Assembly: GCA_028824575.1 (NCBI GenBank)
Contig: JAPPDN010000059.1
Location: forward strand, 1-41,513
Direction: 5' to 3'
DNA length: 41,513 nt
Source of the DNA: Candidatus Poribacteria bacterium
Lineage (GTDB): Bacteria; Poribacteria; WGA-4E; WGA-3G
The notes under the pieces were generated by a model that was not told where the DNA came from, ran no database searches, and worked only from the letters and a program-made list of their open reading frames with translations. Below are positions 3,438 to 36,401 of this stretch, one piece after another. The first letter of the stretch is position 1. Every line of letters begins with the position of its first letter. The position numbers were made by a program, and so were the translations under genes.

Positions 3438-3512
3438 GGTCCGTGTGCGGTGAAAGTCGTACGCACGGTTTGGAAGGGGTTGTAGAGGGGCGATCCTCTA
3501 CGACTACCTTAC
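3438..3512 (+). mobile_element. group II intron 3'-terminal fragment (domains V and VI), probably decayed
   Basis: 3441-3468 CCGTGTGCGGTGAAAGTCGTACGCACGG follows the domain V layout (lower stem, GCGGT/GTCGT upper stem, GAAA tetraloop, AC bulge). 3473-3512 folds as domain VI (GTAGAGG/CCTCTAC) with a bulged A 7 nt before a terminal AC. No GUGYG 5' end or reverse transcriptase is recognisable upstream, and the AGC triad position reads GTC. Confidence 0.5.
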
Positions 3513-3544
3513 AAAAAACTATTGACGGAGTTGGACTAATCCTT

Positions 3545-3838
3545 TTTATCTATATCTATGAGCATCTTGACGCTGCGATTGACGTTATTAACAAGAAACC
3601 GAAGCCGTTGGCACTTTATGTTTTTGGCAACAATCGCAGAAAGATTGACAAGATCAGGCATCAGACCTCAAGCGAGGGGGGAACCATCAATGATCTCTTG
3701 ATGCACGTCAATGCCAAGGAAATGGGTTTTGGTGAGGTCGGTTATAGCGGTATGGGACGTTACAAAGGTGGATTCATCACATTGCCGATACGCCCTCCGA
3801 GTGAAAGACAATGGTGGAGGTGGTCGTGGGGACTTTAG
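3545..3838 (+). pseudogene. aldehyde dehydrogenase C-terminal remnant
   Basis: ORF 3383-3838 is chimeric. Residues ~55-135 (HLDAAIDVINKKPKPLALYVFGNN...TSSEGGTINDLLMH...GFGEVGYSGMGRYKGGF) resemble the last ~90 aa of ALDH with degraded motifs. The N-terminal 350+ aa are absent. Confidence 0.5.
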
Positions 3839-3841
3839 AGC

Positions 3842-4270
3842 ATGAGAAAAAATAGCACGCTGCTGTTTCAGCATATTTTATGCATTTTCTGTTTACTTGG
3901 GGTCTTGTTGAGCTGGGGGTGCCATCGGTCAGGAACTCCCCAGGAGAGCCGTCAAGCAGAGATCAATCAGATCATCCAAAAGACGAACGCTATAAACGCA
4001 AAGATAGAGATGTATCGGGAAAGAGCTTTGGAACACGATCGGAAACTCAATGCGTATCGTCAAGAGATGAAACAGCTTCGCGCAGACCTTGGCTCCGAGA
4101 CGGGTGCCGCGAGAAAAGATCGTAAATCCGAGATACGAAGACTCAAGTTTTTTGCCAATCACGCTAAGAAAGCGAGAAACGCAGAACGCATACGGATTCA
4201 GGTCTATACCGAAGACGTTAAGGCGTTGGCTGGCGATTTTGATGTCCTTTTCAAGGAAACAACAGAATGA
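3842..4270 (+). CDS. putative lipoprotein with coiled-coil region
   Basis: Signal peptide ending LLSWGC (lipobox-like), followed by a charged helical repeat region; weak RBS. Confidence 0.55.
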   Translation: MRKNSTLLFQHILCIFCLLGVLLSWGCHRSGTPQESRQAEINQIIQKTNAINAKIEMYRERALEHDRKLNAYRQEMKQLRADLGSETGAARKDRKSEIRRLKFFANHAKKARNAERIRIQVYTEDVKALAGDFDVLFKETTE

Positions 4271-5908: not shown

Positions 5909-5982
5909 TTTATAGGTCCCCGTTGGTTGAGATTTGAAGTGCCAACGTTTATTGATACCACAATTTAGCAGTGCCTTTAATT

Positions 5983-6022
5983 AAAAACAGGGACATGCAC
6001 CGAAGCGCACATCCCTGTTTTT
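5983..6022 (-). terminator. rho-independent (bidirectional-type) terminator of the 1367-aa gene
   Basis: Minus strand reads AAAAACAGGGATGTGCGC-TTCG-GTGCATGTCCCTGTTTTT about 10 nt after the stop at 6032; long GC-rich stem, UUCG loop, T-run. Confidence 0.7.
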
Positions 6023-6031
6023 AGCGTATGT

Positions 6032-9000
6032 CTACTTCAGTATGACCATCTTGCGAAGTGACGAAATTTCGTCCGTTTCTAACTGGTAGAAATAGACACC
6101 GCTCGCCACCTGTTCGCCAGAAGCGTTCCGACCGTCCCAATACGCCGCACGCTCGCGATCCGTATAGTAACCAGCCGACTGCTGACCCAACTGCAACGTC
6201 CGGACGACGACACCGTTCGCGGCATAGATCGTGATCCGCACATCCGTATCCGTCGCCAACTCATAGGGTATCCACGTCTCTGGATTGAACGGGTTCGGAT
6301 AGTTCGCAAGCAACTGCGTCCGCTCGGGACGTGCCGTCGCAATGAGTTGCTGCAGATACACCAACGTCTTCAGCGCGTCGGGTGAGCGATCGCCTGACAC
6401 AATCAACAGGTCAATCTGTTCCTGAAGCCGTCCGACCTGCTCGGCAGTCAGTTTCACACCAAAGACCATGGGGGCAGCCGCTGCGCCGTTGTCACGATTG
6501 TCGCGAACCAGGGCGATGTCTTTATCGTTTACCGTGCCATCGCCGTTCACATCATACTGGACGTTGTCTGTCCCGACAGCCAATGAGACTAAAAACAGAT
6601 CGGCATTATCCACCGTGCCACTGCCATCTACATCGTAGTTCGGTTCAGAGGCAGGCTGCGATGGCTTCGTGGAGGGCATCGGTGTTGCGGTGTTCACACC
6701 CCCGATCGCTAAAGCTGTCGGGGTCATCAGACCTGTCACGACATCTTGATACCGAGAGCCTCTCACACCCCGCTGCACCTTGCCCCACCCATTCGTCCAA
6801 TACAACTGCTGATTCGCAGCATCCAGCGCCAGTCCATGCACAGTCGCCGTGACGGTATAGGCATTCGTGATACCCGTGCCATCGAGGTTCGCTGCCCGGA
6901 TTCTGCCACTTCTCGCACCCGTCTGTTCCGTCCAGTAGACTTTGCTACCATCGACAACAATGCCACCGAGCGTCCCAGACCCCGTCACGATGTTCTGAAT
7001 CGCTTTTGTCCCCTGTAACGGGGCAGACCGCACGCGACCGCTGCCATCGGTCCAGTAAATACGGGACCCAGAGACCGCAATACCCAGGGGGGCACCCAAG
7101 TTCGTAAGGAAGTTGGTCTCAAACTGCGTGCCATCTACGTTCATCCGCTGGATTTTGCCCCAGCCGTTGGTGATATACAGTTTCCCATTCGCAAGTGCTA
7201 CCCCTTTCGGCACACTCGTGAGGGTTTTTATGACCGCAGCATCGCTACCGTCGAGGTTCGCATGATGGATAGCACCCCGCGTCTCACTCGTCTGCTCTAT
7301 CCAGTAGAGTTTATCACTACCGACAGCGACATCGGTAGCACTCTCGGCGATCTGTTCAGCACTCGCACCCGCAAGCCGATACAAACCACCCCCCGCTATC
7401 CAATACATCACAGGACGGTTCGCCGCACCGACAACTGCTTTCGCATCGCTCATGCCGGGGGAATCGCCCGCACTCGGGGTCGACACCGTGGAAACTTCTA
7501 TCTCTCCCTTGGTCAGAATGCCGTAAGACACGACACACTCCCCATCACTGACACACGTGTAGACGGTGCCACCGAGCGTGTGCTTGCCGCTGAAGGTCAA
7601 GGTCGCAGCGAGACTGATCGGCATCTTGTCACCGGTCTGATACGTTTTTGCTTCAACTTTCTCAACCGCAGTCGCCGCTATTTCTCCCTTGACGAGCGTG
7701 CCGTAGGAGACGACACACTCCCCAGAACCGACACACGTGTAAGATGTCCCATTCAGGGTCCGGCTCCCTCTGAAGGTCAAGGTATCCTCTAAGCTGATCG
7801 GCACCTTGTCGCCGACCTGATACGTCCGTCCATCAGTTGTGTCGGATGTCTCTCTCGGTGTTGTGCCACCATCGACATCAATGATAAAAGAGACAGACGC
7901 ACTGACACCCGCGGCTTTCGCCTCAACGATGAGGTTACCCCCTAAGGGCGTGACGGACGCACTTGCATAGCCACTTCTATCCGTCTCGGCGACGACTGCG
8001 CGTCCGTTGCCGCGTTGCGACAAGCGTCCCCGTCCAGGTGCCAGCACTCGGAACGTCACTCTGATGCCTGACACACCCCTGTTCGTGGCATCTAAAACGC
8101 GAACCCGAAGCCGTGTGGCTTGGTTGACCGTGCCCTCAAGCTTGCGGGCCCCGTCAATCTCAATGCTATCTGCGACACCCGCAGCACCTGTTTGTGTTGT
8201 CGTTGTCGTTGTGGTGGTCGTCGTATCCGTTGTCGTTTGCGTGCCAGGGGTGAACGACACCTGTGTTGCGTTATAGCCCTCGGCGTTCACTGTCAGGATA
8301 TGGCTACCGGTGGTGAGCCCTATCGGAATAGCACGTCCCGTGCCTGTGGGGAGTATTTCTCCGCCGCCCGCATAGACACCCCCACTCGTGGTGAGCCTAA
8401 ATGCTAAATTGCTCGTAGGTGCAGGACTCGCAGACACGACGACCGTCCCGCCATCTTGCCTGGCAGTCAGGGTGCCGGGGACTGTTACCGTAACAGAGTC
8501 TGACGCAGACGTATACCCTGCAGTCGTGGTCGCGGTGACCGTATATGTGCCAGCAGCACTCGGGAGCGTCCAGGTGCTTGTTAGGGGAGTCGCACCACTT
8601 GGTATCGAAAGCGTCCCACCGTTCGTCGTGAGCGTTGTAAATATGCCGGAGGTGGATGTCGTTCCTGCGGCGAGCGCACTTACTTGAACGGTGCGCGTGT
8701 CCCCGGAGCCTGACAGGGAGATGCCAAGGCGGTTCGGAGTGGTTTGCTGTTGGTTCTGCTGATTTTGGTTCTGGTTCTGTTGCTGATTCGTTGTCCTTGC
8801 CGTTGGAACCGGCTGTCCTTTATACTCAAAAATAATCGTTGCACGGGGGGCAGTACGATCCTCACCCGCAAACCAGACATGAACCTCGTTAGAGCTGTTA
8901 TTCGTGTTAAGATACACGTTGGAACCTTGATGTACTCCTGGTATTAATGAACTTGGTTTTGTCTCCGCCTTTATAAGTGTTCCAACATACAGGGTTCCAC

Positions 9001-10135
9001 TGCCTCTAACGACCTCATAACGAATCCGACGATTTAGGTCAGTATTGGCAGTCCCAGGCGCACTTTCAAAGCTCAAGTATGTACTTACAGGGACTACATC
9101 TTCATCCACAGGTATCCTTCGGATATCAGGCAAAATATTATCAGTGCCTGTGGCCGGAGTGGTAGCCGGCGTTACATGAACTGTGAATGTTAGAACTCGC
9201 CGTGGCCGATTGACGCTTCGCTGTACATCCGGTGGAAAATCTGCTTGTGCTGTTGCATCTGAGATCGTAATTCTATGTATTCCTACCGAAGCATCTTCAT
9301 AAACTAAAGTTATAGAAGACGGAATACCTATATCCACCATCTCCTGTAGAGATGCACTACGGGGAGTATCAGCAGGGACGCTGGTGATAAGGTCTGCCTG
9401 TGTCACCGGGAAAAAATAAGAGGAACTCTTCAATTTAAGAGTTCCGCTACCAGTAGAATCACGTACAGTTGTAATGTTAATCGCTTCATCGTTATAATAG
9501 TAAGCTGTGCTTTCAGTAACCCAATTTTGGGTATCGGTAGTAATGGCGAGTCCGGTAACTGTCGTCGTGTCCACCGCCGATGTCGTGTAATAGTGAGTAT
9601 CGCCTGCAGTATACCCTGCATCTACAGTCCTACTAACAGCAACATTAGAACGGATTCGCTCCGCGCCAGCATATTGGCGGTCCACTGTATTCCCCGCACT
9701 CCAAGTTCGACCCTCCGGCAGTGTATCAGTACCTGAAACCCCCCAATTTCGGGTATTAGTAGTAATGGCGAGTCCGGTAACTGTCGTCGTGTCCACCGCC
9801 GATGTCGTGTAATAGTGAGTATCGCCTGCAGTATACCCTGCATCTACAGTCCTACTAACAGCAACATTAGAACGGATTCGACTCCCGGTAGCATAACCAA
9901 TAGCCGTTGCGTTAGCTTTGGTATGCCTACTATTTGAATTGTAATCATTTATGTCTTTAGGGGGATTCAGTCCTACCCTAAATGACACCTCAAATGGGGT
10001 TCCCATTCGTCCCGATTGACTTAAACTCGATGTTTCTGTGAGCGTTAACGCATCTGCGATGCCTTGTACGCTGAACCCCAGCACAAGCCCCACCAGCAAT
10101 CCAAGCACGATTTTTCGCGTCGTTAAATTCTTCAT
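6032..10135 (-). CDS. giant secreted multidomain surface protein (Ig-like repeats, YWTD-type beta-propeller, dockerin-like repeats, T9SS-type CTD)
   Basis: N-terminal signal peptide. Two exact 41-aa repeats. poly-QN and poly-Thr linkers. Bacterial Ig-like segment (RLRVRVLDATNRGVSGIRVTFRV). Six repeats of the (L/V)YW(T/I)(D/E/N) type. DVDGSGTVDNADL / DVNGDGTVNDKDI dockerin/EF-hand pair. C-terminal NYPNPFNPETWIPYEL...GVYFYQL sorting domain. Confidence 0.9.
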   Translation of the reverse strand: MKNLTTRKIVLGLLVGLVLGFSVQGIADALTLTETSSLSQSGRMGTPFEVSFRVGLNPPKDINDYNSNSRHTKANATAIGYATGSRIRSNVAVSRTVDAGYTAGDTHYYTTSAVDTTTVTGLAITTNTRNWGVSGTDTLPEGRTWSAGNTVDRQYAGAERIRSNVAVSRTVDAGYTAGDTHYYTTSAVDTTTVTGLAITTDTQNWVTESTAYYYNDEAINITTVRDSTGSGTLKLKSSSYFFPVTQADLITSVPADTPRSASLQEMVDIGIPSSITLVYEDASVGIHRITISDATAQADFPPDVQRSVNRPRRVLTFTVHVTPATTPATGTDNILPDIRRIPVDEDVVPVSTYLSFESAPGTANTDLNRRIRYEVVRGSGTLYVGTLIKAETKPSSLIPGVHQGSNVYLNTNNSSNEVHVWFAGEDRTAPRATIIFEYKGQPVPTARTTNQQQNQNQNQQNQQQTTPNRLGISLSGSGDTRTVQVSALAAGTTSTSGIFTTLTTNGGTLSIPSGATPLTSTWTLPSAAGTYTVTATTTAGYTSASDSVTVTVPGTLTARQDGGTVVVSASPAPTSNLAFRLTTSGGVYAGGGEILPTGTGRAIPIGLTTGSHILTVNAEGYNATQVSFTPGTQTTTDTTTTTTTTTTQTGAAGVADSIEIDGARKLEGTVNQATRLRVRVLDATNRGVSGIRVTFRVLAPGRGRLSQRGNGRAVVAETDRSGYASASVTPLGGNLIVEAKAAGVSASVSFIIDVDGGTTPRETSDTTDGRTYQVGDKVPISLEDTLTFRGSRTLNGTSYTCVGSGECVVSYGTLVKGEIAATAVEKVEAKTYQTGDKMPISLAATLTFSGKHTLGGTVYTCVSDGECVVSYGILTKGEIEVSTVSTPSAGDSPGMSDAKAVVGAANRPVMYWIAGGGLYRLAGASAEQIAESATDVAVGSDKLYWIEQTSETRGAIHHANLDGSDAAVIKTLTSVPKGVALANGKLYITNGWGKIQRMNVDGTQFETNFLTNLGAPLGIAVSGSRIYWTDGSGRVRSAPLQGTKAIQNIVTGSGTLGGIVVDGSKVYWTEQTGARSGRIRAANLDGTGITNAYTVTATVHGLALDAANQQLYWTNGWGKVQRGVRGSRYQDVVTGLMTPTALAIGGVNTATPMPSTKPSQPASEPNYDVDGSGTVDNADLFLVSLAVGTDNVQYDVNGDGTVNDKDIALVRDNRDNGAAAAPMVFGVKLTAEQVGRLQEQIDLLIVSGDRSPDALKTLVYLQQLIATARPERTQLLANYPNPFNPETWIPYELATDTDVRITIYAANGVVVRTLQLGQQSAGYYTDRERAAYWDGRNASGEQVASGVYFYQLETDEISSLRKMVILK
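9537..9880. repeat. 222-bp-period tandem duplication inside the giant gene
   Basis: 122-nt blocks 9537-9658 and 9759-9880 are identical by eye; they encode RIRSNVAVSRTVDAGYTAGDTHYYTTSAVDTTTVTGLAITT twice. Confidence 0.85.
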
Positions 10136-11767: not shown

Positions 11768-11990
11768 CTGCAACACCGGTTTTTTAACAATTGCTTCTGA
11801 GCTTCTGCGTTCGTTGTCCTTGCACAGTCCCAATTGTGAACAGACCTTTCATAACCTAAAGTAGGTTTCTTAACTTAACCGAAAACCATCGTGGAACGAA
11901 GTGGAACGATGCCCAGATTCAATAAATTAAAAACCAATTTTAGATCGGCGTTGACAACGGAAACGCCGCCCAGACACCCATAATTAAAAA
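11768..11990. repeat. composite X-Y structured repeat, copy A
   Basis: Aligns with 14128-14363: X part 11768-11875 (stem ACAATTG/CAATTGT), a ~55-nt insertion, and Y part 11936-11990 (GGCGTT-GACAACGGA-AACGCC). It overlaps the stop codon of the OMP gene. Confidence 0.8.
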
Positions 11991-12757
11991 TCGTAATCCA
12001 ATGTCCAAAGGTTGGCAATTTCGCGTTCCAGTTCGCCATCAAACGTTTGGAAACCGACATCTAACGCGCCAGTGAGTTCCAACTGCGTGCCGAGTTCCCA
12101 AGACGAGCTCAACGTCGCGATTAACTGATGCACCGCATCCTCTGCTCCCGATAACTCCGGCATCCCTTGTAACCGCACATGCGCAAAAGACAGATCGAAC
12201 TCCGCCTCGAGGAGCGCGTTCACAGAATTACCCGCCTTTATGCTGAGTCCTGTCGGCGCAGGGTTCACCGCATCAAGCCCTAAACCCCTTAATGTAGATA
12301 CATCATAGCCTTTATCTTCAAGCGTTTTTAAGGCATTCGGCGGACCGAACACACCCCCGTTCCTGCCGAAAATACCGAGAGAGACCTGCACATCCCCGAA
12401 CGTTCGACCGAACTTCGCACCGATGTCCGTGGCACGTCCCAAATCGGAGACGCTGTATCCCTTGAGTTTCGTTTTCGTGAAGATACCCGCATCGAAGCCA
12501 GCGACCGGCACAGAGACTTCCAAATTAGACTTACCGAGAATCTGATCGCCACTTTGCACCGTCGCCTCCAATTCACACTTCGCCGCACCCATCTCAAACG
12601 GGATGTCCGCAGACGCACCCCATGAGACATCCGGTCCGATCTGGTTCACGGAGAGCCCGATACTCCGATCCGCATCCGCATTTACACCCGAAAACATCAC
12701 CAGCGCGAGAAGCAACGCGCCCCACACCCAATTCTTTCTACCGTTCTTCAAAAACAT
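11984..12757 (-). CDS. outer-membrane beta-barrel protein (Lom-like position)
   Basis: Signal peptide MFLKNGRKNWVWGALLLALVMFSGVNADA, alternating amphipathic strands, C-terminal ...WTLDYDF (terminal Phe); AAGGAG RBS. Confidence 0.7.
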   Translation of the reverse strand: MFLKNGRKNWVWGALLLALVMFSGVNADADRSIGLSVNQIGPDVSWGASADIPFEMGAAKCELEATVQSGDQILGKSNLEVSVPVAGFDAGIFTKTKLKGYSVSDLGRATDIGAKFGRTFGDVQVSLGIFGRNGGVFGPPNALKTLEDKGYDVSTLRGLGLDAVNPAPTGLSIKAGNSVNALLEAEFDLSFAHVRLQGMPELSGAEDAVHQLIATLSSSWELGTQLELTGALDVGFQTFDGELEREIANLWTLDYDF

Positions 12758-13294: not shown

Positions 13295-14107
13295 TCACTG
13301 TTCGGAGACGCTGAAGGTCAATATCTCCCCACCCGTTTTATCGTCTGTCCTGTAGCGAACCGGCACCCGTTCCCCTATGAACGTCGCTGGGAAAATCCGC
13401 CAGGGGAATCGCGACGGCTCCTGCGCATGTACATGATTCCGGTTCTCCGACCGCCAATACAAAAACTCTTCGGGCGTTTCCAAAAGCGTTTTCCCAGGCA
13501 CCACCTTCACGGCGTAGTCCACTTCCCATTTATCGCGTTCAGCCCCGACCGGAGACCCATAGCCGAGACTGCCCCTGGGTGCTGAATGAATCTCGCCACT
13601 CCGATCCACAAAGTCGGCGTTGATCTCCGTAAAGTCACCGTTCGCATCTATGGAAATCCCGAACTCCAGGAGCATCACCTCAATGATCTTGACATTGCTC
13701 CCCGTGAACCTCAGCCGCACACGCGTCGCCGTGAAATGCGCATCTAACAGATACAAGTCGTGCTGGAAGCCGTTCACGAGGGTGCTGACATCCGTGCCTT
13801 CCCAATTCTTCACTGTTGCCGGCATCCTGCGATTGCTATATCCTACTCCCGATCCACCGGTAGGCGTCGCACTGTGCCTTTCAATCCCGATCCCCTTCAC
13901 GAAGACAGCATCCACCCGCGTCGGGTTCCCGTTCACTGCGATGTTGATGTCGTAATCCGTTTCTGTTGAGAACGTCCTGTAATCGTTGTCCGAGACCGCA
14001 CGGATGATATTCGATGCATTCCCATGTTCGCTAATCCGCGCCCCGTCCTCCAAATAGTTGACGCATTCCTTAAAGAACAGCGCGTTGTGTAAAGAGAAAC
14101 CCTTCAT
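13295..14107 (-). CDS. phage accessory tail protein, possibly with a galactose-binding/discoidin-like domain
   Basis: 270-aa ORF with AGGAGGG RBS. The N-terminal half (AVSDNDYRTFSTETDYDINIAVNGNPTRVDAVFVKG...VRLRFTGSNVKIIEVMLLE) resembles carbohydrate-binding jelly-roll modules. It lies after the host-specificity gene. Confidence 0.55.
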   Translation of the reverse strand: MKGFSLHNALFFKECVNYLEDGARISEHGNASNIIRAVSDNDYRTFSTETDYDINIAVNGNPTRVDAVFVKGIGIERHSATPTGGSGVGYSNRRMPATVKNWEGTDVSTLVNGFQHDLYLLDAHFTATRVRLRFTGSNVKIIEVMLLEFGISIDANGDFTEINADFVDRSGEIHSAPRGSLGYGSPVGAERDKWEVDYAVKVVPGKTLLETPEEFLYWRSENRNHVHAQEPSRFPWRIFPATFIGERVPVRYRTDDKTGGEILTFSVSEQ

Positions 14108-14127: not shown

Positions 14128-14363
14128 AACCGCAGGGTTTTTTAACGATTGCTTCTGAGCTGCTGCGTCCGTTGTCCTTGCAGTATTTCAATCGTTAACG
14201 AGCCTCTCATAATCTAAAGTAGGTTTTTTACCAATTTTAGATCGATGCCGACAACGGAGGCATCGCTCAGAAGCACATAATTAAAAAATCGTAACCTAAA
14301 GCAGGTTTTTTACCAATTTTAGATCGGCGTTGACAACGGAAACGCCGCCCAGGGGCTCATAGT
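14128..14363. repeat. composite X-Y-Y structured repeat, copy B
   Basis: X hairpin TTAACGATTG (14142-14151) / CAATCGTTAA (14189-14198). Two tandem ~82-bp Y units with stems GATGCC/GGCATC (14244-14264) and GGCGTT/AACGCC (14326-14346) around the identical loop GACAACGGA. Confidence 0.85.
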
Positions 14364-17300
14364 TTAAAATCCGTGCCAGCGGATGAGGGTACCTGCGCCA
14401 TCTGCGAAAAACGGAGTCCCCGCACCATCCGTAATATGCAGCGGAGCTTGCACTGCCGGTAAGACCTCAATCGGCTGCGTGAGCAGGATCACCTGCCCCT
14501 CCGAATCCGTCGCCGTATAAACGTAATCCATCTCCGCCATCACCGCAACCGGTGTCCCGCTGAGCGTCCGGGTCCTCGGATCAAACCGCAACCCTTTCCC
14601 GAGCGCCGGTGAAAAGGCATAGGTAAACGGGTTCCCGATCGGACTCATCCCCGCAGGCAGCACGACAGGCATCATCTCCGCATACTGCACCAGCGTCAGT
14701 TTCGGGAGTTCAGAAACTTCAAAAGTCGGAGCCACATCGAAATAGAGTGCATCCCCGAAATAGAGCGGGGCTTTCCCCGCACCATCCACCAAAAGCGGAG
14801 TCCCCGCACCATCCGTTGTCAAGTAATGCCGTGTCAGGTCCGCCATCCGCACGACTTCCGGCGTAACCACAGGTGTCACCTGCCGCCCCCGAATCGTCGT
14901 GAATTCGCTACCCGTCCGCACCGACATCACCTGCATCGCGATGAGATACCCGTCAACTTCCGGGGCATCCGCGAGATACTTAAAACAGACAATCTCGCCT
15001 AAGTTCACGGCATAGAACGCACGCACCCGGACATTGATGAGATACGCCAAATCCTTGAAACGCTCCAGATACTGCTTAGAGATAAACTCGACCCAGGGCA
15101 GCTCGTGTTCCGTTGTGCTTAACGCCAACTGCAACGGATTCGACCCGAATTGCGACTGACTCGCTGCGTCTAACACACGACTCCGCACGGGCGATCCCTC
15201 TTCAATCGAGTTATAGAGATGATCGGAATCCAAGGAGACGGTTACCTCCAAATACGGTTCCGAAGACCGCATCGTGTTTCGCGCCTCGATGGGTCTATGG
15301 ACAAACGTGATAAGTGAGTCCGCCGCATGCGGGACAATGGGGGTCGCCAGTTCACCGCGCGAGATACCCGTGAAATGCGTCGCCGTCCGACCCGTATACC
15401 GCACCAATTCCGAACCGATCAGCAGATACCCCATCGTCGGGAACGCATGATTCGCAAACGCATACCCTATTTCTGTGTCAGGGACCCCTACATCCGCCGC
15501 TACGAACGCACCGCGGGCCCGACGGTTCTGTAAACTTAAGATATTCTTGTCGATGGAGACCGTCGCACCGACGGTCGTCGCTAACGAGGTCAAGACCTCC
15601 GAGATAGCACCCGATGTCGGTAGCACCGGCACTTTGTAACGGTATTTCTTCCCAAACGAGAACCATTGCCAATTCTCAGGTCGAGACGCATCGCTTTCGG
15701 GCTGCCCTATCAAGGCAGGGTCCCCGTATCCCATCACGAAATGTAAATCGTCGTCGAAACTTATGCCCCGCATCGGGAGCTGTCCGCCGTAGGCACGATT
15801 ATTATCAAAATAGACGTTCCCAAGCGTTTCGATCTCGCCTGTCATCAGAATCCGTTTCAAAAAGCCTTTCGCCTCGGACGCATCAAACGCAACCTCGCGA
15901 TTGCGCGCCTCAAACAGATAAGACACCGCGGGCGACTCTACGAAATAGATATACCCGTCTGCGGAAAAGTCGGGATTTGCGAGGCTATCGGCTCGCAAAT
16001 CGTTACCTTCTGTTTGGCTTTCGCGAACAGAAGCCGACTTTTCCGAGTGTTTCGTTAGCATACACGGTCCGTACTGCACGAAATCATACGTCGCTAATGC
16101 CTGGAGCTGCAACGTCACCTGATTATACCGATACAGAATCACACCCGCATCCGTGCTGATGTCCCGACCGTTACGACTCACCGGCACGATCAGGTAGATG
16201 TTATGCCCATCCACAAGCACTTCATGCACCCCAAGCCACGCATCCCCCGCGGTATCATCGAACGCCCTGAACCGAGACAGGAGTTCTGTCCGCTGGAAAA
16301 CCGTCTCTGTTGTCCCGTCTGTCCATTTCTCAATCGTCAATGTGCTGGTCGTGTCCGTCCCTTCCACCGACGCAAAGAAGACCTCCCCAGCATCCGTCAC
16401 ATCGAAAGCGAAATTTAAGTGGTTCTGATACGCATCTTTATTGCGTGTGAAGAGTGCTGATACACGCCCGTTCGGTTCCCGACGCGCCAGACCGAATGCC
16501 GTGCCCTTCGCATACCGATACACGAAACTCCCATCGGTCCCTTGATACCGAAACCCACCGCGCACGCCACGCGTGATCCCTCGCCACGTGTAATCCAAAC
16601 CGCTCACACCGACCCAGTAATGCAACCCCGCTTGTGGACGGAAGTCTGTTTCTTTTCCGATAAGCACCCTGTAGTGATGCACGCTCTGCTGGTATGAGAC
16701 GATCTGCGTGTTCTCGGATACACTCGCGTCATATCCCAGAACTACCGATTGTGGGACTTTCGACACAGGGTCCACGCTCCGATCGAAGTCCGTCGCATCC
16801 GTTACGATCACCGCGAAGGTGTCGAAATCTGAACTCGCAAAACTCACGACCGAGAGTTCCGGATCGAATTCATATAGAACCTGGTGCGTCTCCTTTTTTA
16901 CGTCGTAGCATACCAACGCATCCGATATATAATTGACAGGGTTCGAGAGCAGGTAATAAAATACCCCGTTCTCAGCGTCTACGATCCAATCTACCGGATA
17001 CCGCAGCAATCTACCCCGTTCTACAGGGAAGGCGAGGTTCCCGTTTGAACGGATATGTGAGGTTTCCCCTATCGCTTCGGGTTCCATGGCGTGCACCGTG
17101 AGTAAGACGGGTTCCTGTTTGACGAGTTTCTCTACGGCTGCCTGCGGGGAGAGATACCGATGCGGGGTTTGCGTTTTCACCAATACGGGGATCGGGGTCC
17201 TGTCTTCTGATACCGATAGATACCCGCCCTGGGTTCGCACCTCCGACTCGGTCATAAATGCCGTGTCGTCTTCCGTCACGCCTTCGGGCGCGTTCTGGAT

Positions 17301-19544
17301 CGCTTTCAGGGTCAATCCCGTTGTGTGAACGTCTGCAGCCGACCCCTTCGGGATCATCGCTCCAAACGTGTCTTCCACCGTATAGCGTCCCTCCGCAACG
17401 GAAACCTCCTGCCCCTCTTCATCGGCAGCGGTGAGCTCCAGTAGCTTCGGCACACCCGCTACTGTCTCGGAGACCTGTAGGTTCTTTAAAACATAACTCG
17501 AATCTATGCACTGTAAACCGACCCTGCCTACGCCTAACCGGTCATCCACTTCAAAGATAACGCCTTTAAAAATTTCTTTCGACTGGACGCTCCCATCGGG
17601 TAACCGGAGGTTCACACACACTATCACCTCGTTGAGATATCCGCTCTCGTTGAGCGAATGCGTCTTCCAAAACGAGTCCGGGTTCGTTTCATTGAAATAC
17701 CCGCCGTTCTCGGAATCGCTACGCAGTGTCACCACGCACCGTCCACGCGTGAACTGGTTCAGCCGCACCCAGTCCAAGTTGTTGCTTATCTCCGGGAGGT
17801 TCTCGCCATCGAGGTGTGCCGTTACGTCTATCCCCTCGATAAATACTTCATACCCCTGAACGTCCGTTATGGATACCAATTCCGGTTCCGATAGCACGGT
17901 TACCCCAAACGCTGCGTCCGCAAAGAATCCCCGTCGCGTTCCCGCCCGCAACGATACTTGATGGGTAACCGTGATGCCTGACCCCGATGCTACTCGTAGC
18001 ACACTGTCGTTTACCAATTCTAAGCCTTCAGGCACCGTCGACCCATACACCCATTCTACGAAATCCGCGCCCTCAACATACTCCAAAAGGTTCACTTCTT
18101 GTGCAGCAGCGAGCGTCATTGTAGATATTTCTTTCCAGACAGGGACCCCTACCCCCGTGACACTCACATAGAAGCCACAGGCGTTCTGCAAAGACCCCCC
18201 GACGCTGTTGATGCCCCGCAATTGCACATACCCCGCACCGTCAACAGGCGCGTCCTCCGAAATCACCAAATACCGGTTCCCTTCTATGGATAACCAGTCC
18301 GGTTTCTCGGAACCGACATCGAACACCACGTCCGTCGCGTTGTGCATGAACTTGAATAGGTCTAACCGTTCTCCTGGGGCAACCTCCTGCGGATAGATCG
18401 CACCAATAGGCTGCGGCAACGTCCATACTGAGACATCAAGAAACTGTAAATCGCCACGCGTATTATACCGAAACAGCCACCCTCGAAAATAAAACAGAGA
18501 CAGCGGGGCGTAGGTGATGAATTCTTTCGCCATCGGTATCCGCCGGCCCGGCACCAATTCGTATGTATCATCGTAGACATGGATGTAATGATCGCCTGTC
18601 GTCCGCTCTTCAATAAACACCGCATTGAGACCGCTTGCCAGATACCACGTCACCTTATCGTCCAGGGGTTCCGCATGTTCCCCATCTGAAAGCGATACGG
18701 TTTCCAACGGTGTCGTTTCTAAATCCATCTCTTCCGCAATGCCCACATGGACGGTTTCTATCGGGAGTTCCGTGATTTGAGTCGTACCTGTTTGGACAAC
18801 TAAGAGCCGCCCATCTTCTGTCAACGTCCACGACCGATTCGCTGTGCTTGGGAGAATGTCCGCGGATTCCCAGACCGATATTCCATCTTTGTAGAGGATG
18901 AGTTTCCGGTTTGAAGCCGTGAGAAACGTTTCCGCATTGAATCGTAGCGTCACGGTGTTTTGTCCGCTGCCTGGTGCTACGATTGCATCGCGTGCTGCTA
19001 CCCGGGTCCCATCCCAATTGTAGATATGGATATTCCGAGCATCCCGTAAGTAGATATGCTCGCTATCAATAGACACGATCTGATCATACGTCTGCAGATT
19101 AGCGTCATCAGGGATAGAATCCGCGTGAAACAGCGTATTCCACTCCGATTTCGGAAAATCATCGCTGTAGTGCACCGTCACCGCTGTTTCAGGATTACCC
19201 GCCGCGACCGTATCCTCAAGCACCCTGAGTGTCACCTGCCCCGCACCACCAGACCCTGGAAACCGCACGGTCGCCCCGTAGACGCATCCCTTTCCCGTCA
19301 GCGCACCCACAAACGACACCTCAGCCGAGATGTCAATGCCGGTGTCGTCTTCAGCCGTCAACACTACATTCGTCAGTGAGAAGTCCGGCACATTCGCATC
19401 AAACGCGAACAGCACCGCGACATCGTTTTTCTCTACGGGGTCCGGCGGATTCGCTTCCAGATCCACCTCCGTCAGATACAACGTGGGAGGGGTTTGTAAC
19501 CCCGAAGGTCTTGGAATGGTAAGGATTTGCAGTGTAGTTGCCAT
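14364..19544 (-). CDS. giant tail host-specificity / central fibre protein (gpJ/Tal position)
   Basis: 1726-aa ORF in the position after the tape measure and Dit-position genes. A C-terminal Ig-like (He_PIG-type) segment FTYAFSPALGKGLRFDPRTRTLSGTP...YVYTATDSEG. A repeated TDGAGTP..DGAG motif at the C-terminus. No obvious SD at ATG 19544. Confidence 0.8.
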   Translation of the reverse strand: MATTLQILTIPRPSGLQTPPTLYLTEVDLEANPPDPVEKNDVAVLFAFDANVPDFSLTNVVLTAEDDTGIDISAEVSFVGALTGKGCVYGATVRFPGSGGAGQVTLRVLEDTVAAGNPETAVTVHYSDDFPKSEWNTLFHADSIPDDANLQTYDQIVSIDSEHIYLRDARNIHIYNWDGTRVAARDAIVAPGSGQNTVTLRFNAETFLTASNRKLILYKDGISVWESADILPSTANRSWTLTEDGRLLVVQTGTTQITELPIETVHVGIAEEMDLETTPLETVSLSDGEHAEPLDDKVTWYLASGLNAVFIEERTTGDHYIHVYDDTYELVPGRRIPMAKEFITYAPLSLFYFRGWLFRYNTRGDLQFLDVSVWTLPQPIGAIYPQEVAPGERLDLFKFMHNATDVVFDVGSEKPDWLSIEGNRYLVISEDAPVDGAGYVQLRGINSVGGSLQNACGFYVSVTGVGVPVWKEISTMTLAAAQEVNLLEYVEGADFVEWVYGSTVPEGLELVNDSVLRVASGSGITVTHQVSLRAGTRRGFFADAAFGVTVLSEPELVSITDVQGYEVFIEGIDVTAHLDGENLPEISNNLDWVRLNQFTRGRCVVTLRSDSENGGYFNETNPDSFWKTHSLNESGYLNEVIVCVNLRLPDGSVQSKEIFKGVIFEVDDRLGVGRVGLQCIDSSYVLKNLQVSETVAGVPKLLELTAADEEGQEVSVAEGRYTVEDTFGAMIPKGSAADVHTTGLTLKAIQNAPEGVTEDDTAFMTESEVRTQGGYLSVSEDRTPIPVLVKTQTPHRYLSPQAAVEKLVKQEPVLLTVHAMEPEAIGETSHIRSNGNLAFPVERGRLLRYPVDWIVDAENGVFYYLLSNPVNYISDALVCYDVKKETHQVLYEFDPELSVVSFASSDFDTFAVIVTDATDFDRSVDPVSKVPQSVVLGYDASVSENTQIVSYQQSVHHYRVLIGKETDFRPQAGLHYWVGVSGLDYTWRGITRGVRGGFRYQGTDGSFVYRYAKGTAFGLARREPNGRVSALFTRNKDAYQNHLNFAFDVTDAGEVFFASVEGTDTTSTLTIEKWTDGTTETVFQRTELLSRFRAFDDTAGDAWLGVHEVLVDGHNIYLIVPVSRNGRDISTDAGVILYRYNQVTLQLQALATYDFVQYGPCMLTKHSEKSASVRESQTEGNDLRADSLANPDFSADGYIYFVESPAVSYLFEARNREVAFDASEAKGFLKRILMTGEIETLGNVYFDNNRAYGGQLPMRGISFDDDLHFVMGYGDPALIGQPESDASRPENWQWFSFGKKYRYKVPVLPTSGAISEVLTSLATTVGATVSIDKNILSLQNRRARGAFVAADVGVPDTEIGYAFANHAFPTMGYLLIGSELVRYTGRTATHFTGISRGELATPIVPHAADSLITFVHRPIEARNTMRSSEPYLEVTVSLDSDHLYNSIEEGSPVRSRVLDAASQSQFGSNPLQLALSTTEHELPWVEFISKQYLERFKDLAYLINVRVRAFYAVNLGEIVCFKYLADAPEVDGYLIAMQVMSVRTGSEFTTIRGRQVTPVVTPEVVRMADLTRHYLTTDGAGTPLLVDGAGKAPLYFGDALYFDVAPTFEVSELPKLTLVQYAEMMPVVLPAGMSPIGNPFTYAFSPALGKGLRFDPRTRTLSGTPVAVMAEMDYVYTATDSEGQVILLTQPIEVLPAVQAPLHITDGAGTPFFADGAGTLIRWHGF
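15962..16045. repeat. 84-bp three-way-junction palindromic element, copy 1 (in frame inside CDS)
   Basis: 12-bp closing stem CGGAAAAGTCGG/CCGACTTTTCCG; hairpin GATTTGCGAG-8nt-CTCGCAAATC; hairpin CTTCTGTT-11nt-AACAGAAG; 96 percent identical to 36402-36485. Confidence 0.9.
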
Positions 19545-20261: not shown

Positions 20262-20435
20262 TGTATCCCCCTCTTGTGAAAGTCCGTAAAGTGTTCTAAA
20301 ATCCGTAAAGTTAGAAAGTTGCCAGAGGTGTTTGGACATCCAAAGCATCTCTTGAAACTTTTCAACTTTAGCTACACTTCAAAACTTTAGCTACACTTCC
20401 TTATCTTCCCAACTTTAGTACACTTCAAAACTTTC
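20262..20435 (-). promoter_or_regulatory. conserved phage intergenic module, copy 1
   Basis: Plus strand carries AACTTTAG(C)TACACTTC three times (20364-20380, 20383-20399, 20411-20426), the palindrome CAGAGGTGTTTGGACATCCAAAGCATCTCTTG (20322-20354) and the block GTGAAAGTCCGTAAAGTGTTC (20276-20296). All are shared with 38877-39014. Confidence 0.6.
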
Positions 20436-23400
20436 TTATATATTGACCCGTTCATTGAGTTGCTCTGTCCGAGACTGTTGCTCCAACAGAATATTGTCGT
20501 TCAACGTCACAGGCACCGTAACCTCAATCGTTTGCGGTGATGTGGAAACGTTCCTACCGCCACCGCCTGGCATATTCACAACCCCACCAGACACATTCAC
20601 AGTGTCAGCCTCTATTGAAAGAGTGTCTACAGTGATTTCCTGCGCACCGCGGATCACGAGGCTTTGAATATCTGCTTCCCTTAATGCTGTTGAAAGGAGA
20701 CTGCCGAGCGCGTTCGGAACGTCCGCAAAATCTTCAAGTTTTGGGAGTGTTGCCGAGAATACCGCAATGCCCCGCCCAAACATTTCTGCGTTTGATGCGT
20801 TCGCGATGGCTGTTGCAGACTCGGTGGTAGCAGTGGTGGCGTTTGTCATCGCGGTGGTTGCTTCGGTTTCGGCTGTCGTCGCGTTCTGCTCAATCAACGG
20901 TGCCAATGCCGTTTCAATCGCTGTCGCCTGTAACACCGCTTGTGTTTCGATGTCCGCAGTCCGTTCAACCGTCCGTGCCTCCAAATCCGCTACCGATCGC
21001 TGGTTCTGCAGATACTCATCCAGCCCGCGCCGTCCAAACACCCGTTCAATAAAGTTCTCATCCGTCAACGCACCGCTTTCTAACTCCTGCCGATAGAAGT
21101 CGTATCCCGAACTCCCCGGTGTCAGGATACCGAACTCCGTTTGGAAGTCCTGTACATCCCGATCCCGCTGACGGTTCAGATCAAAAAGGTCCCGCTGATA
21201 CGTGCTATCCGATTCCAATTGCTGCCGCTGCGCCGCCGACAACTCCCCGAACTCCTCATCGAATAACCGCCGCGCCGTCTCTGTTTGTAAATCTTGGAGG
21301 TCGCGCTGATATTCCCGCTGGATTTCCTCTGCCGTCTGATTCCGATCCCGTTGTAAGTCGTCAAGGTCTTCATGGAACTGTTCTTCCAACGCAAGAAGAC
21401 GGTCCTTGTGATCTTCGTTCAATTTCTCAATCGCGTCTAAACGGTCTGCCTCGTTCTCTATCTGGGCATCGCGCACTTCTTCAATCTCATCTTGCCGACG
21501 TGCCTCACGTGCGATCGCATCTTCGCGGAGTCGCTCTATCTCGGCTTGCGCACTCTCTTCGTCTCGGAGCCGATCCCGCGTAAACTGGTTCTGGGCGGTT
21601 GTCGCTCTACGTAATGCCTGTTCACGCAGCAACTGGTTGTCCTGGCGTAAGTTTTCCAGTTCCGTCTCTGATAACGCTAATTCATTGATACGTTTCAGCT
21701 CATTGTCATAAAAAGCATTGATCGCACGGATAAGGGTTCGCCTCGCATCTTCAAAGCCCCGTTCAGTCGTCGCACCTGTCAGATTGAAACGCGCCCGCGC
21801 AACCGCGTTTTCCAATAGGTTCGATTCAGGGGTATCTTCAAGACGCGTGCGTGGCGGTGCTACCTCTGCTGTAGGGGTATCTGTTGATACGGGGTCTTCC
21901 GTCGGGACTTCAGGGACCGGGATTCGGCGGACGGCTAATGCCGTGCCTTGTAGAAATCCTGAAGCCTCTGTAAATGCGTTCTCTAACGCAAAGCCGACAT
22001 CCTCGAGATTGGAAACCAACCGCAGGTTCGCATCAAAAAGCCGATCCGTGAACGCGTTGGTATACCGCGTCCGCGCATTCGCTAACGCATCCTCCGTGAA
22101 GATACCCACACCCGCTTCTATGAACGCTAATTGCTGATCCCGATACGCGGTTTCCGCCGCGCCGAGTCGCGTATACGCCGATGTGATGGTTTCCGCCGTG
22201 CTGTCTTCGCCTAATAAACGGATGGCGTTCTCTGCAGACGTAATATCGCCTTGCAATGTGCGAAGGATGTCTCGCTGTTGTGCTGTGAATCGGAAAACCT
22301 CTGTCGGGGGTTCCTGTTCGAGAACTTGTGGTGTTTCCGTTGGCACGTCGTCCCCAATCGACTGCACAACCGCCTGCTCAGGTGCCTGAACGTCAACAAT
22401 CTCTTCAGGAATCCGTTGCACCTGGAGTGCCGCCCCTGAAAGGACGCCCGACATGTTCTGGATCGCCGTCACTAACTGGAATCCAACGGCTTCCAAAGCA
22501 TCTAAGAGCTCACCGTTCGCCGCTTCAATCTCGTTACCAAACCGCTGACCTGATAGTGTCAACGCACGCTGTCTCGCGTCTTCTGTGATGTTTGTCGCGT
22601 TCGTGATGAAAGCAACGATTTGCGTCTGGACTGCCGCCTGCGCAGTCGCTAAATCCGTGTAGGCACTGGTAATCTCTTGGGGCGTGCTGGTGGCATCGAG
22701 GTCATCCACAACGCCCTGTGCGATCGCGACGGTTTCCTCAAGGGGCGCTAACACCCGCCGCTGTTCCGGTGAAAGCCTGAAAATGTTTTCGAGTGCCTCG
22801 GTCGCCGCCGTTACCGTCTCTTCAACCACCGTGCCGACATCCGCAACAACATCCGCAACGCCCGTCCCTTGGGCTGCTGCGACTTCCGCCTCATACGCCG
22901 TTTCACCATACTGCGCTCGGGCGACATCTTCTATCGCTTGTCTGTCCGTGCCAGTGGATTCGGCAATCTGACGCGCAGTCCGCTCGCCGCTTTGTCCCTC
23001 GCTTTGCAGCTGACGGATGGTGTTTAATTGCTCGTTCCGCGCGTCGTTGAGCTCCTGGATGACATCAAATTGTTGGGTGCCGAACAACGCATTGAAGATG
23101 TTTATCGCTTCCTGCTGTGCATCAAAAAATTGGTTCGTCGCATGCAGTGCCCTGTTCCTGAAATGGTCGACATTCTCACCCGTGGCAAGCGAATCTTCAT
23201 AATCCGATACCGCGGCGTTCATCGCTTGCTGCAATTGCGTGGCGATCGGGTCAAAGATGTTCCGAAGATGTGTTTCGATGACATCTATATCCGTAATGCC
23301 GATCAGTTGCTCCAAAAGCGACTGGATAATCTGTCCATCGAAGTGCGTAGTCCCGTCAGCCGTCTCTTGCGCCGATCGAACTCCCCGCGCAAAATGCCTG

Positions 23401-26947: not shown

Positions 26948-26992
26948 TTCGTCAATATTGTTCGTTGTTATCTACAATGAGGCATCTTTTTC

Positions 26993-27021
26993 TTGCAAAA
27001 TAGTAGGGAAAATGGTATAAT
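26993..27021 (+). promoter_or_regulatory. sigma70-like promoter of HEG cassette 1
   Basis: TTGCAA (26993-26998), 17-bp spacer, TATAAT (27016-27021); same layout at 29675-29703. Confidence 0.65.
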
Positions 27022-27180
27022 GGAAGGAGTAAGTGGGAAGGGGGCGTAACCCCTCCCCGCTGCCAGAAACAGCTAACCTAAGTCGCTAAACTTGGATATT
27101 GCTAAAGGCATTTCTATTTTAACAAACCTTCCAAAGAAATGTCAAGCGAGGTCCCCAAACCTACAGGAGCTTGATATATT

Positions 27181-28149
27181 ATGGGATCCATCTACAAAAT
27201 TACGAACACTCTCAGCGGTGAATCTTACATCGGTCAATGCAGGGGCAATGTCAATAAACGATATAATGCTCATATCAGAGGTGATGGAAACAAACCTCTA
27301 AAAGAAGCCATTGATAAATACGGCATTGAACACTTTACCTTTAAAATCCTGCATGATGGTATTTTAGATGAACTCCTTGATGACTACGAGGAAGCAGCAA
27401 TAGCGAAATATAACACCTTTGAAAACGGCTATAACGAGACTCCCAGAAGTAGTGGCAATCTTTCTGGTAAAAATCACCCGCTGTATGGCAAACCTCGCAG
27501 TGAAGAAGAAAAACGAAAAATATCTGAGTCTGCGAAAGCAAGCCCGCTTGTTGCAAAAGTCCAAAAAATGGCAACTGAAGCGGCTGCGAAAAAAACTAAA
27601 GGTGTTCCCCGTAGTGAAGAAATTCGGAGAAAAATAAGTATCTCACATCGTAAATCTGATTATACAGAAATGCCTGATTTCTTTTTATCCCTTCCGGCAG
27701 ATATGCACTCCTCTATAAAAGTGCGTTTACTTCGTGAACAATTCCCAGATGTAAGTAAGAGCACCCTTTACTTCCGAATAAGCAAATGGACTGGTGTAAA
27801 AACTAAAAAACAGCACCCTAATTACCCAGAGGTTTATGAGTTTTTTACTTCCCTTCCGGCAGATATGCCATTACCGAAAAAAAGACATTTGCTCCACAAG
27901 CAATTTCCAAATGTTAGAAGGCATTATATTAATAGATGGCTCAACAAGTGGAGCGGTACAAAAACTTTGAAGCGGCATCCTGATTATTCAGATGCAAACG
28001 ATTTGTTCTTATCACTTCCCGCGGAGATGTCATTATCTGAGAAAAGATGTTTGCTCTACGAACAATTTCCGAACGTTAAAAGAGACACAATTCGGTCTTG
28101 GATCCGCAAATGGCAAACCGAACTTACCCCCAAAGGAGAACAAAAATGA
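27181..28149 (+). CDS. GIY-YIG homing endonuclease (two NUMOD3-like motifs plus three ~50-aa HTH-like repeats)
   Basis: N-terminus MGSIYKITNTLSGESYIGQ...R...E...GYN (GIY-YIG core); PRSEEEKRKIS and PRSEEIRRKIS motifs; three repeats of F(L/T)SLPA(D/E)M...QFP(D/N)V...W..KW. Confidence 0.85.
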   Translation: MGSIYKITNTLSGESYIGQCRGNVNKRYNAHIRGDGNKPLKEAIDKYGIEHFTFKILHDGILDELLDDYEEAAIAKYNTFENGYNETPRSSGNLSGKNHPLYGKPRSEEEKRKISESAKASPLVAKVQKMATEAAAKKTKGVPRSEEIRRKISISHRKSDYTEMPDFFLSLPADMHSSIKVRLLREQFPDVSKSTLYFRISKWTGVKTKKQHPNYPEVYEFFTSLPADMPLPKKRHLLHKQFPNVRRHYINRWLNKWSGTKTLKRHPDYSDANDLFLSLPAEMSLSEKRCLLYEQFPNVKRDTIRSWIRKWQTELTPKGEQK

Positions 28150-29626: not shown

Positions 29627-29674
29627 ATAAGGCATCACCTGCTAAAGTGCGCCGCGCCTTCGTGATTTTTTCTC

Positions 29675-36386: not shown

Positions 36387-36401
36387 ATTCAGCGTCCTCT
36401 G

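Follow-up and report, generated by a model that had tools for sequence, protein, structure and literature searches.

The minus strand of the DNA analysed here, a 41,513-nt stretch of contig JAPPDN010000059.1 (assembly GCA_028824575.1, Candidatus Poribacteria bacterium; the whole stretch is hereafter called the window), carries the structural module of a tailed phage, and the locus raises the question of how a large tail-module gene came to contain a palindromic DNA segment that leaves its reading frame open. An earlier note, made from the sequence alone, had described at 15962-16045 a self-contained 84-nt unit, inserted in frame in a "tail host-specificity gene" in the manner of Rickettsia palindromic elements, with a second copy in non-coding DNA at 36402-36485. 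The follow-up described below supported colonisation of an open reading frame (ORF) of this kind. The feature is best read as one copy of a small, non-autonomous, ORF-compatible palindromic mobile DNA element, and we consider it probable that mobile DNA of this type was inserted here precisely and in frame. The element belongs to a family that has not been described previously and is found in sponge-associated microbes and their phages.

Two copies of a three-way-junction palindrome

The features of the two copies, with the genes around them, are the following.

14364-19544, minus strand: 1726-aa tail-module protein hosting copy 1; second ORF after the tape-measure gene, with a small gene between
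15960-16046, minus strand: copy 1, 87-nt element, in frame in the tail ORF; encodes SEKSASVRESQTEGNDLRADSLANPDFSA
15962-15973: 5' arm of the 12-bp closing stem (subterminal inverted repeat), CGGAAAAGTCGG
15974-16001: hairpin B (hairpin 1 of the earlier note), 10-bp stem, 8-nt loop, arms GATTTGCGAG / CTCGCAAATC
16002-16006: unpaired junction GTTAC (coding strand: GTAAC), the same in 4/4 DNA copies
16007-16033: hairpin A (hairpin 2 of the earlier note), 8-bp stem, 11-nt loop, arms CTTCTGTT / AACAGAAG
16034-16045: 3' arm of the closing stem, CCGACTTTTCCG
35871-36386, minus strand: 171-aa gene directly downstream of copy 2; homologues start MIHIHF..., and the gene call of the contig is 171 aa
36400-36486, minus strand: copy 2, 87-nt element, intergenic; 83 of 87 bases as in copy 1
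36536-36874, minus strand: 112-aa gene directly upstream of copy 2

The stem, hairpins and loops claimed at 15962-16045 were all found in the sequence. The 12-bp stem closes two hairpins in a three-way junction, and both strands of each copy fold alike. A degenerate pattern with 34 specified bases matched the window twice, at copies 1 and 2, with 0 matches expected (100 shuffles). Both copies were folded with RNA and DNA parameters, a check that the earlier note had proposed, and the z-scores ranged from -7.4 to -9.1: the RNA folds had energies of -43.5 to -49.3 kcal/mol (z = -7.9 to -9.1) and the DNA folds of about -30 to -34.5 kcal/mol (z = -7.4 to -9.1), values equalled by none of 200 shuffles. 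In a sliding 90-nt fold scan the copies were the top two stretches of the window (-50.6 and -49.0), the next one reaching -40.6. A repeat finder extended the pair to 94 nt at 94% identity. Within the 87 nt the copies are ~95% identical, and two of the four differences make up one compensated pair of the closing stem, A-T at 15968/16039 in copy 1 versus C-G at 36408/36479 in copy 2. The element has no coding capacity of its own, and its stable self-fold is present on both strands, as RNA and as DNA. The two properties expected of a miniature palindromic mobile element, presence in more than one copy and polymorphism between filled and empty sites, were both found, the latter in four comparisons: the tail gene, the intergenic site, a tnpB paralogue on contig L079 and the gene pair P0194/P0208 (P0194 lies on contig L093).

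Filled and empty sites

The tail gene provided the clearest boundaries. On the coding strand the filled site in the window reads AAACAC^TCGGAAAAGTCGG...CCGACTTTTCCGCA^GACGGG (^ marks the junctions), whereas the empty sites in two related tail genes (L004, L005) read AAACAC^GACGGG, so that both boundaries are unambiguous and no base is duplicated. The inserted unit is composed of T, the 84 nt and CA. The unit of the earlier note was thus upheld, while its length had to be corrected to 87 nt (15960-16046), and its precise removal gives TKH^DGYIYF rather than the proposed joining of TKHS to ADGYIYF. The element is free of stop codons in the frame of the minus-strand ORF and encodes the peptide that had been stated; the insert comprises 29 residues between TKH and DGYIYF, residues 1167-1195 of the protein. 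In an alignment with 21 full-length orthologues (48-86% identical), also proposed in the earlier note for its 28 codons, these residues were missing in 19, where TKH runs straight into DG-IYF. The situation that would have contradicted the note, with the residues in all orthologues and no other copy of the element, is therefore the reverse of what was found. The tail protein with the insert is present on three contigs, which makes an artefact of a single assembly unlikely. In an AlphaFold2 model of residues 900-1400 the insert lies between the beta-strands E263-267 and E299-304 and has a pLDDT below 50; the 29 hydrophilic residues are thus predicted to be disordered and placed in a turn between two beta-strands.

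The same site has a further history in two relatives. The L003 tail gene contains, at 5975-5989, a 15-nt in-frame remnant, GCCGACGTTTCCGCA, which equals the right stem arm plus CA in the sequence variant of copy 2; the adjoining DG is changed to AA. This remnant is a footprint of the imprecise loss of an earlier copy. In the L002 tail gene (63% identical; contig of P0014) this very codon boundary is occupied by another insert, which has 45 nt and forms a hairpin (13394-13438; AGCGAAGCATCCC...GGATGACTTCGCGA, peptide SEASHHNDRDRMTSR), again directly 5' of GA, with DNA fold z-scores of -3.9 and -4.6. A peptide nearly identical to that of the L002 insert, SHHDDRDRTTS, occurs at residues ~130-142 of the unrelated protein P0228, which also carries the main element. 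Together they suggest a second palindromic family that colonises ORFs.

Copy 2 is overlapped by a 215-aa TTG ORF from the mechanical ORF list. Most of the 146 homologues of the protein downstream, however, have 158-172 aa and a few are longer, and the gene call of the parent contig is 171 aa. These lengths place the start at ATG 36386 and copy 2 between genes, in agreement with the non-coding location given in the earlier note. The intergenic spacer is 149 nt in the window versus 62 nt in a 95%-identical relative (L008, L009). The empty site there reads GAAAAA^GAGGACGCTGAACATG and the filled site in the window GAAAAA^TCGG...CCGCA^GAGGACGCTGAATATG: the insertion measures exactly 87 nt, has the same end bases as copy 1, made no duplication and has GA on its right. 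Its 3' end abuts the Shine-Dalgarno sequence GAGGA (36395-36399) of the gene starting at 36386, which is not occluded. An independent Logan assembly contig (L092, 9413-9449) terminates within copy 2; assemblers break at this palindrome.

Members of the family outside the window

Searches at the nucleotide level yielded few relatives. Neither a comparison of the region by blastn with 50,697 phage records nor exact-pattern scans (hairpin 1, an interior 23-mer and a half-element) of IMG/VR, JGI metagenomes and GTDB genomes gave a match. A scan with the pair of closing-stem sequences returned 47 + 31 + 2 loci, among which only L064/L079 were related; the others were an orthologous locus of the Bacillus cereus group, GTCGGAAA arrays and chance palindromes. 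The GTCGGAAA(G) arrays, direct and inverted, form long hairpins in Gemmatimonadales metagenome-assembled genomes (MAGs; L012, L013, L032, L033, L036, L037, L047, L054), recur on many contigs of the same MAGs and are also present, in tandem or inverted, in IMG/VR L006/L007. They share the 12-mer of the element and not its architecture.

The two JGI contigs L064 and L079 represent one relative, a 90-nt unit with the same closing stem and a GGTAAC junction. Its hairpin A is CTTCTGC/GCAGAAG (7 bp), and its hairpin B, shared with L093, is GGTGTTGTTCA/TGAACAACACC, fully unlike that of the window and yet perfectly paired. The L079 copy lies upstream of tnpB; an empty paralogue reads GGAAAAAAT^GAACGT, versus the 90-nt unit followed by GAACGC. 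L079 proteins share clusters (≥90%) with proteins that carry the name Candidatus Poribacteria. The contig also encodes an IS200/IS605 Y1 transposase (Y1_Tnp, 129 bits; 5 kb from the element) and three tnpB genes, and the IS605-type elements beside the copy have quite different end hairpins, CCCCCAGCTRAAGCAYGGGGG. Directly upstream of the IS200/IS605 tnpA, at 3813-3928, are eleven tandem 8-nt units (TGCATCCA and similar), through which an extended ORF call reads.

More members were recovered at the peptide level, with the concatenated stop-free translations of the element as the query. Multi-frame translations revealed in-frame copies in tyrosine recombinases (...LKN^SEKSASATKWQQVNDVVHRRRNEQHPDFS^AEADA) and in a 172-aa protein of a phage-like contig. 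The copy on the phage-like contig L093, in the P0194 gene, has 93 nt and the flanks GGTTTT^T...CT^GACGGT, and is a hybrid: its hairpin A is of the type seen in the window, its hairpin B of that seen in L079. When this 172-aa protein was used for an exhaustive HMMER search, the empty allele of P0194 came up in P0208 (GGF^DGSC), together with about a dozen further, unrelated representative proteins that match solely in the element-encoded segment. One carrier at this level, of 941 aa, contains two copies; the others include a sigma-70-like regulator and many small proteins.

We rejected MAG binning as a means of host assignment, since near-identical tail proteins are filed under three MAG groups and the filings contradict each other. 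The tail proteins P0203, P0204 and P0205 (cluster of P0002), at least 90% identical, come from MAGs of Candidatus Dadabacteria, Candidatus Poribacteria and Gammaproteobacteria.

Conserved pairing of the stems

Because MAFFT alignments of the copies were not structure-consistent, pairs were counted in hand-defined modules checked against the source sequences of the four DNA copies. All 123 stem pairs were Watson-Crick, with no G-T pair. The closing stem has 12 of 12 Watson-Crick pairs in each of the four DNA-verified members, including one compensated pair. In hairpin B, seven of the ten pairs are altered on both sides in L079/L093 and none is broken. The stem of hairpin A has 8 bp in the window; L093 has 10 bp there, and L079, with one compensated pair, 7 bp. 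The lack of wobble pairs points to a constraint acting at the DNA level on both strands, not on an RNA fold.

At the peptide level, residues whose coding positions are paired vary together in every copy. The closing-stem residues are S with D in nine loci and R/G with R in five, with no mixed case, the two states being GTCGG/CCGAC versus GCGGG/CCCGC; these locus counts are inflated by shared descent. The hairpin B residues NGV...NEQH, NGL...NEQD and NGF/NGS...NEQN stand for G-C, C-G and T-A at one stem position. Since the co-varying states occur in several combinations, more than one event must have produced them. P0195 has one additional codon on each arm of hairpin A, a symmetric change which suggests that the arms may be kept matched by inter-arm correction as well as by selection. 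The earlier note had held that the nucleotide element is conserved and not the peptide. The comparison of sequences supports this view, in that a hairpin replaced wholesale stays fully paired while the peptide changes.

Compatibility with reading frames

The lengths of the DNA copies are all multiples of three (87, 87, 90 and 93 nt), including those of the two non-coding copies. Five of the six frames are free of stop codons in the window copies and four of six in L079; five open frames have p of about 0.025 under a random null that keeps the architecture. With such a length and such frames, an element that enters between two codons makes the protein longer rather than breaking it, and the palindrome is indeed found in frame in ORFs as unrelated as those of the tail protein, the tyrosine recombinases, the sigma-70-like regulator and many small proteins. 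With the unbiased multi-frame query, all in-ORF copies were in the same hydrophilic frame (three loci only). The larger peptide-level set came from a query in that frame, so its frame bias is partly due to the search. A single antisense read-through was seen, at the C-terminus of P0211.

Ends, target and candidate mechanism

The family is defined by a length of 87-93 nt, a 12-bp subterminal inverted repeat, two internal hairpins and an unpaired GTAAC junction, and its ends are fixed, lying 1-2 nt outside the left repeat arm and 1-2 nt outside the right. On the strand reading TCGGAAAAG..., GA follows directly 3' in all four DNA-verified cases, twice as GACGG; the right flanks are GACGGG (tail), GAGGAC (intergenic), GAACGC (L079) and GACGGT (L093). 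The three phage-borne copies have no flanking duplication and L079 has only an ambiguous GA. The 5' flank is A-rich in three of the four cases. Read on the complementary strand, the 5' flanks are CGTC, CCTC, GTTC and CGTC, of which TC alone is invariant. In the peptide-level copies an Asp or Glu codon mostly occurs within the next two codons.

These properties suggest a working model in which the copies would spread at the DNA level and not as an RNA or protein module. The enzyme would act in trans, as neither the element nor the 49 kb of phage genome read encodes one. Defined ends without duplication would be compatible with HUH transposases, IS110-type enzymes or site-specific recombinases; targets as variable as these speak against IS110-type enzymes and against serine or tyrosine recombinases, and the stable single-strand folds together with a short complementary-strand target fit HUH enzymes of the IS200/IS605, RAYT and IS91 kind (PMC7290912). 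Our leading, though tentative, guess for the mobiliser is an HUH-type single-strand transposase (IS200/IS605 TnpA, RAYT or IS91-like) that might recognise the folded strand and a short YNTC target on the complementary strand. We hold this assignment at a low level because of the perfect inverted repeat, the mismatch with the IS605 hairpins and an uninformative GC skew. The source of the element would be the host, given the homologous copy in a Poribacteria-like genome fragment, and the tail insert would be tolerated rather than adaptive.

Several observations weigh against the interpretation as a mobile element moved by such an enzyme. Only two copies were present in the 49 kb of phage genome, so a high copy number per genome is not established, and the patterns used found no copy in IMG/VR, GTDB representative genomes or phage GenBank records. 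With a mean pLDDT of 54, the AlphaFold2 model of residues 900-1400 is weak. A tblastn search of the window and the related phage loci detected neither a Y1 transposase nor TnpB, and the IS605-type neighbours of the L079 copy, whose hairpins differ, do not provide an obviously cognate mobiliser. IS200/IS605 elements are devoid of terminal inverted repeats (PMC7290912), whereas the element has a perfect one of 12 bp. The invariant target bases are only two. Under the HUH model, target consistency speaks for an active plus strand, whereas GC skew would speak for an active minus strand; being uniform across the structural genes, the skew does not decide between the two.

Other candidates were examined and rejected. 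Against a hammerhead or other ribozyme, the five unpaired junction bases are present on one strand only and a hammerhead-type core is missing; Rfam 15, small ribozymes included, gave no match over the gathering threshold, only two noise matches with E = 3.5 and 5.2. An attC site was also rejected. Insertion by a serine recombinase (IS607-type) or an IS110-type enzyme was dismissed because the junctions have no common crossover dinucleotide and the targets are too variable. Excision as an intron and translational bypass were discarded as well: the reading frame stays open in all ORF copies, the element begins with UCGG and terminates in GCA, its flanks are unable to pair, and the codons on either side, CAC and GAC, differ.

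The phage module around the element

The window is the first 41.5 kb of a 105-kb metagenomic scaffold, and its genes include the following.

20436-26192, minus strand: tape-measure protein (TMP_3, 64 bits)
27181-28149, 29862-30812, 35034-35849 and 41282-41513, plus strand: four GIY-YIG/NUMOD3 homing-endonuclease genes
37515-38876, minus strand: major head protein
39758-41158, minus strand: prohead protease-like gene

The homing-endonuclease genes lie on the strand opposite to the structural genes and occupy other positions in relatives; two of them are preceded by an 85-nt repeated promoter-like sequence (26987-27071, 29669-29753).

The 1726-aa protein belongs to the tail module by its position, and the host specificity ascribed to it in the earlier note amounts to a positional label. 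Its family matches are weak: phrog_4406, a virion structural protein; the unannotated phrog_22827; and a sub-threshold He_PIG Ig domain. No sequence relative was found in the PDB, nor in IMG/VR with the tail-protein alignment. In a Foldseek search with the weak model the top matches were all beta-propellers (sialidases, K1F endosialidase, paraoxonase) with low TM-scores, a resemblance that may give a faint indication of the fold class only.

Other features of the window were recorded. A full-length gene for a BCCT betaine/carnitine/choline transporter (521-2044, plus strand; 599 bits), which two or more assemblies have at the extreme end of the contig, belongs either to the host flank or to the phage, as an auxiliary gene. 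At 3436-3512 (plus strand), within ORF 3383-3838, Rfam detected domain V/VI of a group II intron (44.8 bits, over the gathering score); past it the ORF has a match to the C-terminal part of aldehyde dehydrogenase (profile 373-448), and neither an upstream exon nor an intron-encoded protein was seen at the locus. The 1367-aa protein encoded at 6032-10135 (minus strand) has FlgD Ig-like, type IX secretion C-terminal sorting, dockerin and YWTD-propeller matches, a combination that is unusual among the tail-module genes of a phage. Intergenic repeats with 82-95-nt units lie downstream of the tail gene, three copies at 11778-11991 and two at 14136-14370. The 22-nt motif GGTGTTTTTGCTTGGGTATTTC occurs five times between minus-strand genes (5465, 10517, 11298, 19929 and 37459), and TCAACTTTAGCTACACTTCAAAACTT is found at 20362-20433 and 38987.

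Alternative explanations

The copies could be a structured RNA that stabilises the mRNA, serves as a processing site or regulates translation, kept in the DNA since the transcript needs the fold. The RNA folds are very stable, the four transcribed or coding DNA-verified copies are all in sense orientation, and 0 nt separate the end of copy 2 from a Shine-Dalgarno sequence; read on the other strand, copy 2 with the tract TTTTTCTTTTT behind it resembles a terminator that would stop antisense transcripts arriving from the GIY-YIG gene (35034-35849). However, an RNA would be expected to use wobble pairs, and none of the 123 pairs is G-U, as predicted for a DNA palindrome acting double-stranded or on either strand. 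Rfam gave nothing above noise with thresholds up to E = 10, the copies have no common regulatory context, being located in unrelated ORFs, an untranslated region and an insertion sequence (IS), and relatives with empty sites manage without them. We therefore regard a structured RNA as unlikely. A function at the protein level is harder still to credit. If the 29 residues were a functional module of the tail protein and the palindrome incidental, the use of one frame with the hydrophilic peptide SEKSAS...PDFS by all in-ORF copies would be explained; this bias, however, stems partly from the same-frame peptide query, two of the four DNA-verified copies are non-coding, 19 of the 21 orthologues do without the residues, the insert is predicted to be disordered, and the residue changes follow the pairing partners (V-H, L-D, F-N) and not physicochemical likeness. 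This explanation is scarcely credible.

The remaining alternatives accept a DNA unit and differ in how it arrived. Capture during the repair of breaks at homing-endonuclease cuts, or gene conversion between co-infecting phages, would place the element without transposition and without duplications, as found, and four GIY-YIG/NUMOD3 genes lie within 15 kb, one ending about 550 nt from copy 2. Such capture does not account for independent insertions in different genomes with the same ends (T...CA twice, near-identical twice more) or for the GA flank at every site; moreover, copy 1 adjoins no endonuclease gene and one copy is located within an IS element on a bacterial-type contig, far from endonuclease genes. 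We consider it improbable. A cut-and-paste DDE transposase acting on terminal inverted repeats, with a duplication too short or too decayed to see, would make the element a classical MITE (a miniature transposable element with inverted repeats), for which its small size, lack of an ORF, perfect 12-bp repeat near the ends and the GA dinucleotide on both sides in L079 would speak. Yet three of the four insertions with known empty sites have zero duplicated bases, the boundaries of copy 1 are unambiguous, and no IS with matching repeats appeared when IMG/VR, JGI metagenomes and GTDB genomes were scanned for the repeat pair, which leaves this explanation very little room.

Comparison with known systems

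The closest parallel to the mobile palindrome proposed here is provided by Rickettsia palindromic elements, small palindromic repeats found in frame in unrelated genes and in non-coding DNA (PMC10969869). Like the element, they have no ORF of their own and lengthen a protein without breaking it, and their mobilising enzyme is not known (PMC10969869). They measure ~100-150 bp and are confined to Rickettsia, whereas the element has 87-93 nt and a three-way junction and occurs in sponge-metagenome phages and a Poribacteria-like genome. With another host phylum and another size, homology between the two is unlikely. In functional terms, our comparison takes the element to be in the situation of the Rickettsia palindromic elements, in a new setting and with a new architecture.

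Classical bacterial MITEs are generally tied to DDE transposases and make target duplications, for example of TA. The element resembles them in its inverted repeats 1-2 nt from the ends and differs in lacking a target-site duplication, apart from the ambiguous GA of L079, and in that the scans for the repeat pair found no parent IS. The MITEs that enter ORFs (ERIC, Correia/NEMIS, BOX and the Coxiella QMITE) are likewise short and non-autonomous, with inverted repeats and a stable fold, and are sometimes translated as in-frame fusions (PMC10969869).

PATEs, which consist of the ends of IS200/IS605 elements only, share with the element the lack of a target-site duplication (PMC7290912) and, less clearly, hairpins near both ends and a short adjacent target; a Y1 HUH transposase acting in trans on folded single strands (PMC7290912) would explain the precise ends of the element. 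In contrast to PATEs, which are without terminal inverted repeats, the element has its perfect 12-bp closing stem. Its two hairpins are unlike each other and unlike the IS605-type hairpins of L079, and its targets share TC (GA) only, not a fixed tetra- or pentanucleotide. REP/REPIN sequences served by RAYT are high-copy extragenic palindromes of 20-40 bp with a conserved GTAG or CGTC tag at one end (PMC3733652). By comparison, the element lacks an internal GTAG/CGTC tag, is largely intragenic and appears to have a low copy number per genome. The CGTC beside the element belongs to the target, since empty sites retain GACGG.

Members of the IS1111 group (IS110 family) have subterminal inverted repeats of ~12 bp with few bases outside and make no target duplication. 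Apart from this apparent likeness, their targets are long and highly specific, whereas the four targets of the element share GA and a tendency to an A-rich left flank. The MPMEs of mycobacteriophages are ultra-small mobile DNA as well, of about 440 bp, and carry a small ORF. Non-autonomous mobile DNA of viral genomes is also known as MITEs of pandoraviruses and pithoviruses (PMC13359090); unlike the element, these are of eukaryotic type. A recent review names homing endonucleases and satellites, and not MITEs, as selfish elements of large phages. Our literature search found no account of such an element, whether from symbionts of sponges or placed in frame in a structural gene of a phage.

Implications

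For annotation, the element calls for caution, as gene callers run ORFs through it and assemblies break at it. The filled, empty and remnant alleles form a clean set for studying movement without duplications, and the element is a sequence marker that ties uncultured sponge phages to their hosts where binning is contradictory.

A more far-reaching proposal, which we regard as doubtful, is that the element is one of several "ORF-adapted" palindromic families that circulate between sponge symbionts and their phages, are sent to ^GA(CGG) sites by an unknown enzyme and diversify exposed turns of receptor-binding proteins. If this were true, the length in multiples of three, the near-total absence of stops and the single hydrophilic frame would be the adapted features, and the tail beta-turn, hit by two families and with one copy imprecisely lost, would exemplify a natural mechanism of loop insertion.

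The palindromic colonisation of reading frames, best known from Rickettsia, is here seen in the large tail protein of a tailed phage. The insert offers a natural case of a 29-residue loop tolerated by such a protein, and the family is common to the phage and its likely host lineage, Candidatus Poribacteria.

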